A DNA stretch of 18,319 bases, taken from a virus (lineage: Duplodnaviria; Heunggongvirae; Uroviricota; Caudoviricetes). The stretch lies in IMG/VR virus record IMGVR_UViG_2695420565_000013. One strand, 5' to 3'. The translations under genes and the position numbers were made by a program. The notes below the pieces were generated by a model. That model worked only from the letters and a program-made list of their open reading frames with translations, made no database searches and had not been told where the DNA came from. Positions 962-18,319 of this stretch are shown here, in pieces (position 1 is the first letter of the stretch; each line of letters starts with the position of its first letter).

Positions 962-1291
962 CTATGCCACGACCTGTTCAAAATCTGCCGTTATGGTTAC
1001 CCACAACGCCCCCACGCTTGCCGACCATTTACGACAAACCACCCTGATCGGCTTCCAGTCATAAGGTGGCGTCCACTGAAATGCGCGGACGCCACCGTGC
1101 CGTTCCAGAAAGGCTTTTAAAGATGGGTGTTCACATTTACGAACACGTATCGTCACGCTGTAAATCGACAACTGGTTATTCAGTCCCGCCGCACGACGCT
1201 GTTCATAACCATCGCCCAGCTTCACTGTCACCACTTTCGGCTCTGATACCACATTCATATCCGGGCGCACTTTCCAGTGAAATGTCTCCAT
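962..1291 (-). CDS. M: Minor tail protein M (lambda gpM-like, 109 aa)
   Basis: METFHWKVRPDMNVVSEPKVV...FQWTPPYDWKPIRVVCRKWS...ADFEQVVA parallels lambda gpM (MKTFRWKVKPGM...EFEQVVN). The start ATG overlaps the upstream stop as TAATG. Confidence 0.9.
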   Translation of the reverse strand: METFHWKVRPDMNVVSEPKVVTVKLGDGYEQRRAAGLNNQLSIYSVTIRVRKCEHPSLKAFLERHGGVRAFQWTPPYDWKPIRVVCRKWSASVGALWVTITADFEQVVA

Positions 1292-2898
1292 TACCGATAT
1301 GCTCCACTTAACCGACCACCATCACGGGCCTGCTGTTGCATAAAGTCCGCTGCCGCTTTTTTCCCAAGGTCATAAACCACCTTCAGGGCAGCCGGACCTA
1401 TCTGCCCGTTCGTGCCATCGTTATTGATCTCGATGTTGTACTGCGGGGCAAACATCGCCATACCTGAACCACCAATATCCGCCACAACCCCCAGCTTACC
1501 GTCAGCACCACGACGCAGTGGCAGAATGGCTTCAGGTCCAGCTTCCCCCATCACACCCGCGCCTTTTGCAAAAGCAAAAAACGTCGGACGGTTAACCACC
1601 GTGCCACTGTAACGACTCAAATCAGCAGACTGATAAATCCCCCCATTGGCATTCAGGGAAAGGCTGCTGAGATCAAATCCCAGTACACTGCCAATCCCTT
1701 TTATCGATTTCATCATGGTTGCCTGCGCCAGGATTTTCGCCATATCTGACAGCACCGAAGAGGTGAAGGATTTGAAGTTGAGTTTGCCGGTAGTGACAAA
1801 AGTTGCCAGGCCATTTCCCATGTTGCTGAAGGCTGATGAGAACACCTGTTCTGCTGTTCCTGCCGTATTGTCTGCATCCACGGTAAAATCCTGAAATGCA
1901 CGCAGGACTCCGTTTTTCCAGTTACCCTGCACAACTTCAAGCTGTTGCCAGTAACGGCGATTCTCATTCAGTTGTCGGTTCAGGCTCTCCGTCAGCGCCT
2001 GCTCGGCCTTTCTGTAGTCATCCGTGTTATATGTCCCTTTCTGCTCACTATCCCGCCTCAACTGCTCCAGCTGTTGCTGGTATTTCTGGCGAAGACTCAG
2101 TTGTACCTGATATCGCTGCCGCTGCTGATCACCCATACCCACCGTGGCGATATCCAGGTCATGTTGCTGACGCTGAGCGCGCTCTTCTTCAGCCAGTTGA
2201 CTGGTCAGCTGAATTGTTTTTTTCTTCAGATCGTTGAGTGCCGTTTGTTTCTGAAGCTCCTGCTGTTTTACATCCAGCAGCGTCAGTGCCTGCATCAGTT
2301 CATCTTTACGGGCCAGCACACTCTTTTCATCTGCCGTCAGTTTTTTCCCGTCCAGATCGCTGATGCGCTGCTGCAGAGCCAGAAGCTGTTTATGCGCTTC
2401 TGTCATCTTTTCAGTGGCAATGCCTGCTGACTGTCTTGCAGCAGCAATCTGTCCTTCCACCTGTGCCTGTTGCTGACTGTACTGCAGCAATAACCGGGTG
2501 GCCTCATCATTACGGGTTTCGCGTGTTTTTTTCTTACCGGATGCCAGGGCTTTCTCGTAACGTTCATTTTCACGTTGTATCGCCGCATCCCTGACAGCCT
2601 GGTCGGCGTACTGCATGGCATTAATACGCGCAATTTCACGCTGATGTCGTGCTGCTTCCGTTTCATTCATCCGGTTCAGTGCAGCATTTTCAGCATTACG
2701 TCGTTTCTGTTGCTCCTGATAATTCCGCTCTGCCTGCTCTTTTGCATCCTGCAAATCCTTCTGGCGTTTTTTCTCCTGAAGATCGTTAAGACGCTGCTGA
2801 TCGTATTCAACCTGAGAAGATGATGCGTCTTTTCGCCCGCGATACTTTCTCCTGTAAAGCGGTAATCTGTTCATCCAGCGAGTCTTCACGACCAATAT
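1291..2898 (-). CDS. H: Tail tape measure protein, C-terminal portion; in +1 frame relative to the N-terminal portion (frameshifted, possible pseudogene)
   Basis: 534-codon open frame with a long coiled-coil (Q/E/K/R-rich) region and a Gly-rich C-terminus, ending by overlapping the M start. It has no plausible start of its own: the frame opens just after a stop at 2899-2901. Confidence 0.7.
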   Translation of the reverse strand: MLVVKTRWMNRLPLYRRKYRGRKDASSSQVEYDQQRLNDLQEKKRQKDLQDAKEQAERNYQEQQKRRNAENAALNRMNETEAARHQREIARINAMQYADQAVRDAAIQRENERYEKALASGKKKTRETRNDEATRLLLQYSQQQAQVEGQIAAARQSAGIATEKMTEAHKQLLALQQRISDLDGKKLTADEKSVLARKDELMQALTLLDVKQQELQKQTALNDLKKKTIQLTSQLAEEERAQRQQHDLDIATVGMGDQQRQRYQVQLSLRQKYQQQLEQLRRDSEQKGTYNTDDYRKAEQALTESLNRQLNENRRYWQQLEVVQGNWKNGVLRAFQDFTVDADNTAGTAEQVFSSAFSNMGNGLATFVTTGKLNFKSFTSSVLSDMAKILAQATMMKSIKGIGSVLGFDLSSLSLNANGGIYQSADLSRYSGTVVNRPTFFAFAKGAGVMGEAGPEAILPLRRGADGKLGVVADIGGSGMAMFAPQYNIEINNDGTNGQIGPAALKVVYDLGKKAAADFMQQQARDGGRLSGAYR

Positions 2899-4345
2899 TC
2901 ATGGCCGCATCCCAGAAACGACTCCACAAATCAGACAGATACTTCAGCGTACTGCCAAGCGCATTGAGGTTATTATCAATATCCGCAGTACGCCGACCGG
3001 TTTCCTCTGCCAGTGCAGACATGGCTATCCGTGCAGCATCACTGGACCGTCCCTGATCCCCAAGGACACGTATCTGCTCAAGCTGAGTGGCAGTAAGAAA
3101 ATGCAGCTCATTGTCCAGAGCCTTCGCGGCATTTACAGGATCATCCTTCAGCCGCTTAAACTGATTTATGGTATCGCTGACCGACTGGCCAACCGATCGC
3201 TCCATCTGTGCGGCAGCTCTCGCCACCATACCGATATCGTTTCCACGAAATGCACCACTCCCCACCACCTGCGCCAGCGCACCGGCTGCAGCATGTTGCG
3301 TGATACCATTCCCGGAAATAGCACGACTGAGCGTCCACAGCTGCCCGGCAGTGACTCCGGCATAATGCCCCGTCAGCGACAACTGGCGGTTAAATTCTTC
3401 CCCCTCCTTCTGACCGTCATACCAGGCTTTACCCAGACCATAGACGGCCGCGGCAATACCGCCAATAACCCCGCCAAGCATCATGCCTTTCGGTGACATC
3501 AGTGTGTCTATCCATCCGGCACGGTTAGCCAGCGTTATCCCGGATCCCCTCAGCGCCCCTAAATTGCCGCGGGCCAGTTCACCTATCAGAACGCCTATCT
3601 CCTGGCGGGCTGCTGCACTTTTCAGACCCAGCGAATGCGTGGCTTTTCCTGCCTGCTCCATTTTGCGGATATACACTTCTGCAGCACTGCTTACCCCCAG
3701 CTGGGCTGCCTTGGCACGAAGCAACTCAGAAGATGAAAGATTCTGGCGGGTTGCCTGCTCTTTAAGCTGACGGATAAACGCCACTTTCTGTCGGGTAGCC
3801 TCTTCCTCAGCCTGTGTAAGAACACGGGTTTTCGCAGTAACCTCAGAAATCAGCGCCAGATAATCCTGCTGACCAATCCCGCCACTGTTTCTGGCCTGTC
3901 GGATCTGCTGCTGAATACGCTGTAATTCCTGCAGCCCCGCACTGGCCTGTTTCACACTGTCAATCTGACGATAAAACGCAGCAGCCGCTTTATCCTGAGC
4001 CTCCGCCAGAGCCATGGCCTGCGCCTGTTCCTCGCGCATTTTCTGGCTCAGCGCCTCCATGCGCTGGCGGGTTTTCTCCACCTCGCGGGCCATGCGTTCA
4101 TGAGCCTGTGCGTTCTTCTCCACCGTCTGCGCATGGACGGATGCGGCTGTTGCAGCCGAAGAAGTCGCCTGCGTTGTCTGCCGGGCGGCCTGAGTCTGAC
4201 GCTCCATAAAACGCTGCATACGGGCAGACGACCGTTCTGCATCGCTGGCGGCACCATTCAGAAGGTTTTTGATACGGGGAATTTCATTTTTAAACTCTGC
4301 CGCATCAATCCCCAAATCAATGACCAGGTTGGCTATCTGGTCCAT
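2807..4345 (-). CDS. H: Tail tape measure protein, N-terminal portion (ends at TGA 2807-2809, 89 nt into the other frame)
   Basis: ATG at 4343-4345 preceded by GGAGGT (7 nt spacer). The product MDQIANLVIDLGIDAAEFK... has a coiled-coil N-terminus and a Gly/Ala-rich hydrophobic segment (GMMLGGVIGGIAAAVYGLG) typical of tape measure proteins. Position between G/T and M matches lambda H. Confidence 0.75.
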   Translation of the reverse strand: MDQIANLVIDLGIDAAEFKNEIPRIKNLLNGAASDAERSSARMQRFMERQTQAARQTTQATSSAATAASVHAQTVEKNAQAHERMAREVEKTRQRMEALSQKMREEQAQAMALAEAQDKAAAAFYRQIDSVKQASAGLQELQRIQQQIRQARNSGGIGQQDYLALISEVTAKTRVLTQAEEEATRQKVAFIRQLKEQATRQNLSSSELLRAKAAQLGVSSAAEVYIRKMEQAGKATHSLGLKSAAARQEIGVLIGELARGNLGALRGSGITLANRAGWIDTLMSPKGMMLGGVIGGIAAAVYGLGKAWYDGQKEGEEFNRQLSLTGHYAGVTAGQLWTLSRAISGNGITQHAAAGALAQVVGSGAFRGNDIGMVARAAAQMERSVGQSVSDTINQFKRLKDDPVNAAKALDNELHFLTATQLEQIRVLGDQGRSSDAARIAMSALAEETGRRTADIDNNLNALGSTLKYLSDLWSRFWDAAMNIGREDSLDEQITALQEKVSRAKRRIIFSG

Positions 4346-4679: not shown

Positions 4680-5044
4680 TCATGCTCATCATCCCCGGCA
4701 TTATCAATGGCCCCCATACCGCTCAGCGACAGAACCATCTCCGCCCCCGCCCCCAGGGCATCATACGACCATGTTGTAATAACGGATGCGCAAAGCGTCT
4801 CTACATCCTTAGACTGATCCGCATTCCACAGTGAGCGGGAAACCAGCCAGGCATTGATATCCATCCCCATCCGCAGAAAAGCAATCTGTCGTTCAGCCTC
4901 CGGCAGTTCTCCCTCCCCGGCATCAAACTTTGCCGTTCGCTGCTGAACAAACGCCAGATATTCAATTCTCTGCAGCCCGGACAGCTCACTGAGCACCACG
5001 GACTGTTTTTCATAATTAAACGTGTCCTGTTTCAGAAACATCAT
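4655..5044 (-). CDS. G: Tail assembly chaperone G (lambda gpG-like)
   Basis: MMFLKQDTFNYEKQSVVLSELSGLQRIEYLA... versus lambda gpG MFLKTESFEHNGVTVTLSELSALQRIEHLA...; located between V and the tape measure gene. Confidence 0.85.
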   Translation of the reverse strand: MMFLKQDTFNYEKQSVVLSELSGLQRIEYLAFVQQRTAKFDAGEGELPEAERQIAFLRMGMDINAWLVSRSLWNADQSKDVETLCASVITTWSYDALGAGAEMVLSLSGMGAIDNAGDDEHEALTPEKS

Positions 5045-5057
5045 GTTCTACACCTGC

Positions 5058-5081
5058 AAAAAAGCCCCGGATAACCGGGGC
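5058..5081 (-). terminator. Intrinsic terminator between major tail gene V and G
   Basis: Minus-strand RNA reads GCCCCGG-UUAU-CCGGGGC (7 bp GC stem, 4 nt loop) followed immediately by UUUUUU. It sits 20 nt after the V stop and 14 nt before the G start. Confidence 0.6.
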
Positions 5082-5101
5082 AAATGATGAGTATCGTCCT
5101 G

Positions 5102-5845
5102 TTAACCTGCGGCGCTGACAGTCACCGCAGCCACAGCCACAAAATTCCCGTCAGCGGTCATGCCCACAATGCTGACACTGCCCTGCTTCACGCCTTTCAC
5201 CGTGGCCACAAGCCCGTTCAGGGTCACCGTGGCAGTCTGTGGATCTGACGAATGCACACTGATCGCTTTGTCACTGGCTCCGTCAGGTTTTACTGTAAAG
5301 GTCAGCGTGGTGGTTGCTCCCACATTGACACTGGCAGATGCCGGTGCCACCGTCAGCCCGGTAACGCCCACGATTTCAGTGCCTTCCTCTGCCAGATACG
5401 GACGCCCCACACCGCTGATTTTCACTGTGCGGGTCATCACGTCTTTTGAGGCAATGGTTTTACCCAGTGAACTCAGCCAGCCACGGAAAACATCAACAGT
5501 ACCGTTGGGATATTTGATACGAAAAGCGCAGACTTCACCGGAGTCGAACAACTGAACCAGTTTTTTCTGCCCGCTGTCCCCCGGACGCCAGGCCAGCGTC
5601 GCCGAAGTATCACCGACTGATTTCTGCCCCTGGGTTGTCGTTTTCCAGTCTGCATCTTCATCATCGAGATAAGTGTCATCTTCTGCATCAGCGGTCATTT
5701 CGCCAGGTTGCAGATCCTTCACCATCGCAAGACGCAGCCAGTCAGTGTCCGATAAAGGGTTCGCAAACGCATCGCCCTTGCCGGTATACATCCAGAACGT
5801 CGTTCCCGCACCTTTCGTTTTTGCCAGTGGATTTGGTGTGGTCAT
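5102..5845 (-). CDS. V: Major tail protein V (lambda gpV-like) with C-terminal Ig-like (Big_2-type) domain
   Basis: From ATG 5843-5845 (AAGGAGG 5 nt upstream): MTTPNPLAKTKGAGTTFWMYTGKGDAFANPLSDTDW...YLDDEDADWKTTTQGQKS...NGTVDVFRGW... closely parallels lambda gpV. The ORF-track extension upstream (MIMRWPP...) overlaps U and is rejected. Confidence 0.9.
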   Translation of the reverse strand: MTTPNPLAKTKGAGTTFWMYTGKGDAFANPLSDTDWLRLAMVKDLQPGEMTADAEDDTYLDDEDADWKTTTQGQKSVGDTSATLAWRPGDSGQKKLVQLFDSGEVCAFRIKYPNGTVDVFRGWLSSLGKTIASKDVMTRTVKISGVGRPYLAEEGTEIVGVTGLTVAPASASVNVGATTTLTFTVKPDGASDKAISVHSSDPQTATVTLNGLVATVKGVKQGSVSIVGMTADGNFVAVAAVTVSAAG

Positions 5846-5855
5846 TACCACCTCC

Positions 5856-6257
5856 TTAATTCGTGTACGTGATCTGGTACGTGATTTCCGCCATCGCCCA
5901 GGTGGCCATCTCATTATCACGTTGATAGTTAAAACCGAGTGGGATCAGGGTGTCGATGAGTCCGGAAAGTGCTGGTACATCATTCAGGGCCGGGAAAATG
6001 GTGCTCTCCATCCACATATCCAGCTCTGAATCCGGTGCCTGTGCCCGGATGAAGACAGCAATATGCAGAACAGCCTGCCAGTCATCTTCATCCGTCATTT
6101 TTCCGGTGTACTGAGCATCACTCAGCCACACCGCCACGGCAGGCAGTTCCTGCGCATCAACAAATGCCGGAAGCCCGTCAAAAAACGTGGCGCTGTCTCC
6201 ACACTGTTCCCGAAGGCGTGCCAGTACGACCTGGCGGATTTGTGTATGTCGGTTCAT
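5856..6257 (-). CDS. U: Tail terminator protein U (lambda gpU-like)
   Basis: MNRHTQIRQVVLARLRE...ATFFDGLPAFVDAQELPAVAVWLSDAQYTG...ELDMWMESTIFPALNDVPALS parallels lambda gpU (MKHTELRAAVLDALEK...ATFFDGRPAVFDEADFPAVAVYLTGAEYTG). ATG at 6255-6257 overlaps the Z stop as ATGA; an upstream ATG at 6269 is also possible. Confidence 0.85.
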   Translation of the reverse strand: MNRHTQIRQVVLARLREQCGDSATFFDGLPAFVDAQELPAVAVWLSDAQYTGKMTDEDDWQAVLHIAVFIRAQAPDSELDMWMESTIFPALNDVPALSGLIDTLIPLGFNYQRDNEMATWAMAEITYQITYTN

Positions 6258-16127: not shown

Positions 16128-16333
16128 TTCATTTTCACTTTTTTAAATCCAACGACAGACGGCTGGCATTTAAGTATTGTGAAATATTATCAAATGTAAT
16201 CATCATTGATTTACAAAAGATACATTTTGCCCCGAAAGGATTCATGTCAGAAACATCAAAAGATGATGTTCTATACTGGGAACCATGACAACACGGGCAT
16301 CTAAAGTGAATATGGTTTGTAATATTGTCTACC

Positions 16334-16546
16334 TCAAAGCGCCACTACATGAACAGCGGCAGGACCTTTAGGTCCGTTCTCAATACCAAATTCAACTTCC
16401 TGATTCTCAGTTAATGTTTTGAAATCGTTGCTCTGAATTGCTGAGAAATGGACAAACACATCTTTGCTGCCATCTTTCGGCGTGATGAAACCAAAACCTT
16501 TTTCAGGGTTAAACCATTTCACTAAACCAGTCATTTTGTTAGACAT
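16334..16546 (-). CDS. cspI: Cold shock protein, CspA family (70 aa)
   Basis: [70 protein letters not shown]: cold-shock domain with RNP1 motif KGFGFI and RNP2-like VFVHF. AAGG Shine-Dalgarno as in cspA. Matches the Qin-encoded CspI as recalled and lies next to Rz as in K-12. Confidence 0.9.
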
Positions 16547-16907
16547 AATTATTACCTTTTGAAGAAATTAGCCCTTGGGCAGAATGGTCCGAAAAAAATA
16601 TCAGAGAGAAAAACCAACAAGGAAATCTCAAGAGGTACAAATAATAAAATTATAACAATGACTGCTTCAGATAAATTTGTAACAAACCAGAACACCATTA
16701 ACGCATGATTAACCACCCATAGCAAGGATTACTTTTGTAAAGAAAAACACAGCAATGAAAGAATAGCTTTATTTATTAATAAAACGTGTCATTCTGATTA
16801 AGACCTTTTATCTTACCCTTAAGATTTCAGGAATTTTGGCTCATGGAAGAGTCCTTTTTATTTAAATTTTACATTCCGCGATGTAAATGTTCCGATTTAA
16901 TATTACC

Positions 16908-17931
<1,024 letters not shown>

Positions 17932-17935
<4 letters not shown>

Positions 17936-18211
17936 ATATATTTATGATGAGGACGCTCGTGCTTATTGGCAGGATTTTCAATCTTAAAGGAGTACTGATG
18001 CTGCAGATAAGACTCAACTTTTTCTGACAATTTTTCTGCTACTTCCAGGAAGACTTGCCGGACGCTCCTTCTGGCTGCTGCCTCATAAAACTCCAGCGCA
18101 GCTCCTTCAACACGGTCCATGGCGACATCCAGGTCAAAAATTTCACCGTCAAAGCGTTCCTTGTCCTGTAAGGCTACAGTTACCGTAACTTTATTCTCAA
18201 AATTACGGACT
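17932..18211 (-). pseudogene. 3' part of the gene upstream of R (ydfR-like position, between holin and endolysin); 5' end removed by the IS629-like insertion
   Basis: The reading frame is open from the IS boundary (18211) to the stop at 17932-17934 (...VRNFENKVTVTVALQDKERFDGEIFDLDVAMDRVEGAALEFYEAAARRSV...HKYI*). The only internal ATG (18120) lacks a Shine-Dalgarno. Upstream of 18211 the frame continues into IS sequence and hits a stop. Confidence 0.45.
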
Positions 18212-18319
18212 CTGAACCGCCCCGGGTTTCCTGGAGAGTGTTTTATCTGTGAACTCAGGCTGCCAGATCATCGTTTCCGATGGAAGCATAATAAGCTTTT
18301 TCTGCTTCTGCCGGAGGAG
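18212..18319 (-). mobile_element. IS629-like (IS3 family) insertion sequence, terminal 108 bp; element continues beyond the window
   Basis: 18212 onward reads TGAACCGCCCCGGGTTTCCTGGAGAGTGTTTTATCTGTGAACTCAGGC..., which matches the IS629/IS1203 terminal inverted repeat as I recall it (IS3-family ends start with TG). The minus strand encodes the OrfB C-terminus. Confidence 0.75.
18255..18319 (-). CDS. IS3-family transposase OrfB, C-terminal 21 codons (partial; runs off the window)
   Basis: Minus-strand translation ...PPAEAEKAYYASIGNDDLAA* with TGA at 18255-18257, 43 bp inside the IS end. This matches the C-terminal motif of IS629/IS3-type transposases as I recall it. Confidence 0.7.
   Translation of the reverse strand, partial: PPAEAEKAYYASIGNDDLAA

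Follow-up and report, generated by a model that had tools for sequence, protein, structure and literature searches.

The right end of an IS629 element adjoins a truncated ydfR gene at the edge of the 18,319-nt window, by which we mean the whole stretch of viral DNA analysed here, and we regard this assignment as virtually certain. The gene belongs to the lysis region of a Qin-like lambdoid prophage of Escherichia coli. The junction is present in independent assemblies, and it leaves the endolysin and spanin genes intact while separating ydfR from its ribosome-binding site and start codon.

The right end of IS629 adjoins ydfR

The last 107 bases of the window match the IS629 element of phage VT1-Sakai (AP000400) at 107/107 positions and correspond to bases 1-107 of this 1310-bp element. 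The first of them, T18213, is the outer base of the feature annotated in AP000400 as 'inverted repeat from right end of IS629'. From 18213 onward the sequence reads TGAACCGCCCCGGGTTTCCTGGAGA..., and the terminal inverted repeat, which coincides with the annotated 25-bp right inverted repeat (IRR, Table 1), starts with TGAACCGCCCCGGG as in IS629. On the minus strand, positions 18255-18317 are translated into PPAEAEKAYYASIGNDDLAA*, the C-terminus of the IS629 transposase OrfB; the last 20 codons and the stop codon are present with DNA identical to the annotated orfB, and the remainder lies beyond the contig end. The IS629 (isoform IS1203) copy of VT1-Sakai, a prophage of E. coli O157:H7 Sakai, carries the same 107 bases base for base, including the IRR and the OrfB C-terminus; the window copy likewise resides in a prophage, but its insertion site, in ydfR, differs. 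The 107-base end was also found in 176 phage records and in 2670 plasmid records, among them Salmonella and Klebsiella plasmids, and several of these matches are annotated as IS629 OrfB or IS629 ORF2. The subtype is not distinguishable from these bases, since annotated copies that are 4% apart overall (loci L001 and L004 versus L003) share them.

On the other side of the junction, positions 17932-18212 correspond to nucleotides 32-312 of ydfR, which in its intact form has 312 nt and codes for a 103-aa 'YdfR family protein' (DUF1327), and nucleotides 1-31 are absent. Many complete E. coli genomes contain an intact ydfR-rrrQ region that matches the stretch 17900-18212 at 100% and departs from the window after 18212. 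The boundary between IS and gene is therefore 18212|18213, with the sequence ...GTTGTGAAAGGAG|TGAACCGCCCCGGGAATCC... across it. The original prediction, made from the sequence alone, had proposed an IS3-family element of the IS629 type with a transposase C-terminus just inside its terminal repeat, and both parts are borne out by the exact identity to annotated IS629 and by the minus-strand translation. The predicted terminal repeat is present as well, but it starts one base later than the proposed position 18212, as C18212 still agrees with intact ydfR. A search for repeats around the junction returned only short repeats at chance level, and an Rfam scan of positions 17932-18319 gave no match.

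Table 1. Features of the window discussed in the text.
Feature	Position	Strand	Evidence or remarks
Tail tape-measure gene, two parts	2807-4345 and 1291-2895	-	products of 512 and 487 aa
rzpQ, Rz-type inner-membrane spanin, DUF2514	16908-17405	-	Pfam PF10721, E=7.7e-39; annotation in relatives
rzoQ, Rz1-type outer-membrane lipoprotein spanin, within rzpQ in another frame	16958-17230	-	ORF; lipobox L-T-S-C
rrrQ, endolysin, 177 aa	17402-17935	-	Pfam Phage_lysozyme PF00959, E=1e-23; annotated rrrQ in relatives
ydfR' remnant	17932-18212	-	100% identity to O26:H11 11368 and E2865 up to 18212; PF07041; first usable ATG at 18120, giving 62 aa
Presumed target trinucleotide	18210-18212	.	CTC on the plus strand, GAG on the gene strand; inferred, second copy outside the window
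IS629 right end, cut by the contig end	18213-18319	-	107/107 to AP000400 from the annotated outer base of the IRR
25-bp IRR, 17-base spacer and OrfB stop codon	18213-18237 (IRR); TGA 18255-18257	-	annotation match and translation

Simple insertion or rearrangement

We propose that IS629, which when complete has 1310 bp with orfA, orfB, a programmed -1 frameshift and a left inverted repeat, would have transposed into codon 11 of ydfR within the late operon of the prophage, the host being an E. coli lineage near O26:H11 and bovine strains. The rest of the element, a GAG 3-bp duplication, nucleotides 1-34 of ydfR and the holin gene essD would then lie just past the contig end, and the left junction predicted for a simple insertion with GAG duplication would read ...GAACTGGTTGTGAAAGGAG|TGAACCGCCCCGGGAATCCTGGAGAC.... 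We consider it probable that the insertion is indeed simple and that the holin gene is still located on the far side. A 3-bp duplication would lie within the range of 3-4 bp described for IS629, and 62% of the IS629 copies of O157 are located in prophages (PMC3271280).

A second reading, which we judge somewhat unlikely yet worth weighing, is that this IS629 copy forms the edge of a deletion, an inversion or an inter-IS629 recombination and that the DNA past it is unrelated. The prophage would in that case have lost the holin gene together with the 5' end of ydfR, and perhaps the region of the Q-dependent late promoter, which would leave R-Rz-Rz1 stranded. Simple insertion is not the sole likely state, since only 21/47 IS629 sites in O157 have a matching duplication, which is absent from the other 26/47 (PMC3271280), and since excision of IS629 dependent on the excision enhancer IEE, which is common in O26:H11, leads to adjacent deletions ranging from a few nucleotides to more than 40 kb (PMC9943667). 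Moreover, another assembly with the same 62-aa ydfR remnant (L011) has an unrelated integrase/exonuclease region directly upstream, which shows that this gene does undergo rearrangements. Every contig found with the junction ends inside the IS, so that none of them reaches the left end of the element, the duplication or the holin side; contig breaks at an IS are, however, normal in short-read assemblies and uninformative about the DNA beyond. A relative with the same terminase variant and an intact ydfR (L017) also breaks 41 bases upstream of ydfR; the essD side is therefore itself a repeat, and short reads would fail to assemble it even if the insertion were simple. In addition, both fully assembled insertions of IS3-family elements into ydfR, described below, are simple, with 3-bp duplications and an intact essD. 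Exact-match scans of viral, metagenome and species-representative genome collections returned neither the right junction nor, with 0-2 extra bases allowed, the predicted left junction, and a look-up of the terminase variant of this lineage led to the source contig and to clone-mates but to no contig longer than 20 kb.

Prophage background and spread of the junction

The window is the reverse complement of a complete contig, CYCZ01000068.1, of assembly GCA_001283765.1. Along 18.1 kb it follows the Qin-like lambdoid prophage of E. coli O26:H11 str. 11368 collinearly with 99.1% identity, a value that rises to 99.9% in the final 5.2 kb, and its head and tail region agrees to 99.8-99.9% with bovine strains and with strain DEC9B. 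The lysis region essD-ydfR-rrrQ-rzpQ/rzoQ of O26:H11 11368 (NC_013361) and of the K-12 Qin prophage has the same gene order and the same overlapping start and stop codons. In these relatives essD, which codes for a PF04971 holin, is located upstream of ydfR, and in the window strain the corresponding site is on the far side of the IS and past the contig end. The disrupted gene had been predicted to sit between holin and endolysin, which agrees with the position of ydfR between essD and rrrQ in uninterrupted prophages.

The same junction is found in GCA_001283765.1, in GCA_918376305.1 (100% identical over 6357 bases) and in the ENA metagenome scaffold ERZ28645592, and a contig of GCA_039870805.1 is 100% identical and stops 4 bases before the junction. 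As at least two other assemblies contain it, the junction is real, and it marks a clone. That it is an assembly artefact, namely a chimeric contig end produced by repeat collapse with no real IS beside ydfR, might be suspected from the position of the IS at the very contig end and its length of 107 bases only. We consider this very improbable: the identical junction in GCA_918376305.1 and ERZ28645592 comes from different projects and assemblers and is followed by a different length of IS in each, and the break coincides exactly with the biological terminus of the element. Among 5426 complete E. coli genomes the junction was present in none, and the single match covering at least 80%, in strain SW071614, represents a different insertion site. 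When the 62-aa remnant was looked up, the junction was recovered only in the short contig of GCA_918376305.1; the remnant at the other nine places goes back to a frameshift, an N-run, a different IS element or a rearrangement.

At the opposite end of the window, positions 1-127, which belong to a tail gene annotated as C40 family peptidase, do not align to O26:H11 11368 and align instead with O39:NM F8704-2 and E110019. The left contig end therefore lies at a boundary, mosaic or repetitive, where lambdoid tail modules meet. The late region of the prophage also contains a full-length match to the Rfam cspA thermoregulator (RF01766, 114 bits) at 16307-16691 on the minus strand, comprising the 5' leader and start of cspI.

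The ydfR remnant is a pseudogene

The start codon and the first 10.3 codons are missing from the remnant, as is the GAGGAG ribosome-binding site, and what remains is not a full-length YdfR of 103 aa with its own start and ribosome-binding site but a pseudogene. Pfam DUF1327 (PF07041) is matched with E=2e-45 and 153 bits (cut-off 25) over profile positions 12-93 of 93. Read backwards, the ydfR frame is open through the junction up to a TGA at 18268-18270 in the IS; the first ATG, GTG or TTG that follows this stop is the ATG at 18120. The open frame without a start, the identity to intact ydfR and the missing DUF1327 positions together indicate that the gene is truncated, and the earlier claim of an upstream gene that continues in frame to the junction and has lost its 5' end proved correct. 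The comparison with uninterrupted orthologous prophages, which had been proposed as a check, gave the same answer, as ydfR is intact there and the identity breaks at 18212. The idea of a gene that is short by nature, with the ATG at 18120 as its start codon and the IS lying in intergenic DNA and disrupting nothing, has practically no chance of being right: mechanical ORF callers do report a 62-aa ORF from this ATG, but the intact orthologues have 103 aa with 100% identical DNA right up to 18212, the DUF1327 alignment sets in at profile position 12 with the very first residue of the remnant, and the other public 62-aa calls are frameshifted, N-masked or IS-interrupted copies.

Full-length YdfR would no longer be made, since the remnant is cut off from its ribosome-binding site, start codon and first 10 codons; initiation at the internal ATG might yield a C-terminal fragment of 62 aa at most. 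YdfR has been described to bind the catalytic N-terminal half of RNase E via its first 72 residues and may bind RNA (2026 study, PMC13232886). The original prediction had also assumed a loss of promoter-proximal context, a point on which we disagree: there was no promoter context specific to ydfR to lose, and what has gone is the ribosome-binding site and the start codon.

In the deposited contig, a gene call at 74-388 (window 17932-18246, minus strand) reports a 104-aa 'DUF1327' protein that starts at a non-standard ATA in the IS629 inverted repeat (IKHSPGNPGRFR...), and this call is an annotation artefact of the junction. The 62-aa and 104-aa 'DUF1327' calls at this locus are accordingly to be read as remnants of a 103-aa gene. 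NCBIfam provided no names for YdfR', Rz or Rz1.

Endolysin and spanin genes and the predicted effect on lysis

Downstream of the remnant, the endolysin gene and the nested spanin pair are present and intact, with PF00959 and PF10721 matches on intact ORFs and the lipobox LTSC in RzoQ (Table 1). The window rzoQ gave no match in the Pfam and NCBIfam copies searched; for the equivalent ORF at another locus (L008), RzoQ PF28595 is on record. The rrrQ ATG overlaps the ydfR stop codon (ATGA, 17932-17935), and no Shine-Dalgarno motif is found in the 15 nt upstream of it. The GTG start codon of rzpQ overlaps the rrrQ stop codon (GTGA, 17402-17405) and is equipped with a GGGGGA ribosome-binding site. 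The GAGGAG ribosome-binding site of intact ydfR sits in the 3' end of essD and is detached in the window. In intact relatives, the four lysis-region genes form a chain in which ydfR starts 4 nt after the essD stop codon.

The insertion had been predicted to cut R-Rz-Rz1 off from the late promoter and thereby to impair lysis, which appears doubtful to us. OrfB is encoded on the minus strand, as are all late genes, so that the transposase genes of the IS are co-oriented with the late operon. In the fully assembled IS629 that is inserted in ydfR in the same orientation in SW071614, two terminator-like sites were found versus 2.2 expected, and a terminator search along the full element, read in the direction in which the late genes are transcribed, yielded one weak site, no more than in shuffled sequence. 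Late transcription of lambdoid phages is rendered terminator-resistant by Q, and a Q homologue, ydfT, is encoded upstream of essD-ydfR-rrrQ-rzpQ in uninterrupted relatives. Because the IS is co-oriented, shows no excess of terminators and would be read by terminator-resistant polymerase, a loss of R-Rz transcription would not be expected from a simple insertion, and R-Rz-Rz1 are probably still transcribed through the element from the Q-dependent late promoter.

Reduced translation of R seems more plausible than a loss of R-Rz transcription. Since rrrQ has no Shine-Dalgarno motif of its own, its start region suggests that the accessory gene ydfR normally sets the translation of the endolysin. 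Endolysin translation would probably drop upon insertion, since the rrrQ start overlaps the ydfR stop codon and lacks its own ribosome-binding site, and it likely relied on ribosomes translating ydfR. We put the chance of such a translational effect, brought about by the lost coupling to ydfR, at about even. If the endolysin indeed depends on ydfR translation, the insertion would weaken lysis.

The alignment of RrrQ to the phage 21 endolysin (3hde) and to RrrD (4zpu) starts at residue 9, and the N-terminus of RrrQ is weakly hydrophobic and resembles a signal-anchor-release (SAR) domain. These features suggest that RrrQ may be an enzyme of the signal-anchor-release type, which would be less strictly dependent on a holin, and one might speculate that lysis by this prophage needs the holin less than in lambda.

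A hybrid promoter directed outward from the IS right end (TTCAGA, 17 nt, TAAAGT) was also weighed. With 8/12 matches, this candidate is below the threshold of 9 of 12 and was rejected; a scan of 16700-18319 for sigma-70-like promoters with this threshold found no site at the junction.

Other insertions and breaks in ydfR and related prophages

The closest parallel is the IS629 copy in ydfR of E. coli SW071614 (NZ_CM129856.1; L001, 4277-5586), which concerns the same gene, the same type of prophage and the same orientation of the IS. This copy is fully assembled, with 1310 bp, a 3-bp duplication AGC and an intact essD upstream. As it is inserted at nucleotides 69-71 of ydfR, compared with nucleotides 32-34 in the window, it represents an independent event. 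IS629 is also found at ydfR nucleotide 69 in GCA_045757555.1 (L014, 1-379), in the orientation opposite to that in SW071614. In OZ040996.1 (L007, about 4715-5960), a different IS3-family element, the ends of which we take to be IS911-like, is located at ydfR nucleotides 85-87, with a GAA duplication and an intact essD. A break of another kind is seen in the Logan assembly SRR26349129 (L011, about 5800-6001), where the 3' part of ydfR is joined to the integrase/exonuclease region with no IS in between; this is the endpoint of a deletion or rearrangement in ydfR near nucleotide 95.

At least four independent insertions are thus present in the first 87 nt of ydfR in public assemblies, which may reflect a local hot spot or simply deep sampling. 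It has little going for it, in our estimate, that ydfR is recurrently hit by IS3-family elements because its knockout, or the uncoupling of endolysin from holin, is selected during prophage domestication. A related case outside ydfR is found in PPompW_EH2201 (LC567828), in which IS629 is inserted in rem, a small accessory gene, among Qin-type genes (ydfU, rem, gef) and with an annotated 3-bp duplication TAA; the gene and the host strain differ from those of the window. The insertion described here is of a known kind, namely an ordinary IS629 insertion, or an IS629-bounded break, in a prophage accessory gene, and no new kind of element is involved.

Tape-measure frameshift and probable order of decay

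O26:H11 11368 has no IS in ydfR and an undamaged tail tape-measure gene (1021 aa), and relative to it the window combines the IS629 insertion with a second lesion. An 11-bp deletion (CGTCCAGGGGA) at about position 2826, between GTC microrepeats, divides the tape-measure gene of the window in two (Table 1). The longer tape-measure allele is present in 1803 complete-genome records, and the Logan assemblies SRR11041451 and SRR29074249 have the 11-bp deletion in common with the window. The deletion is absent from the metagenome scaffold ERZ28645592, which has the IS junction together with an intact tape-measure gene, and from this comparison the IS insertion probably preceded the tape-measure deletion. 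The IS insertion would then be one step in the decay of the prophage, with the tape-measure frameshift following later in the window strain. In this order, IS629 in ydfR and then the 11-bp deletion, the two events would add a dated step to the decay of Qin-like prophages in an O26-related lineage.

Distribution of IS629 and use of the junction

The statement of the original prediction that IS629 is characteristic of O157 and Shigella is too strong. The 107-base end is present in 4082 of the 5426 complete E. coli genomes (75%), with a median of three places per genome and up to 50, and the prophage itself is closest to O26:H11 and bovine strains. A high copy number of IS629 is typical of O157; the mere presence of the element is not diagnostic of it. 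The IS629 copy explains the position at which the contig ends, and the junction with ydfR could serve as a clone marker for typing in the style of IS-printing.
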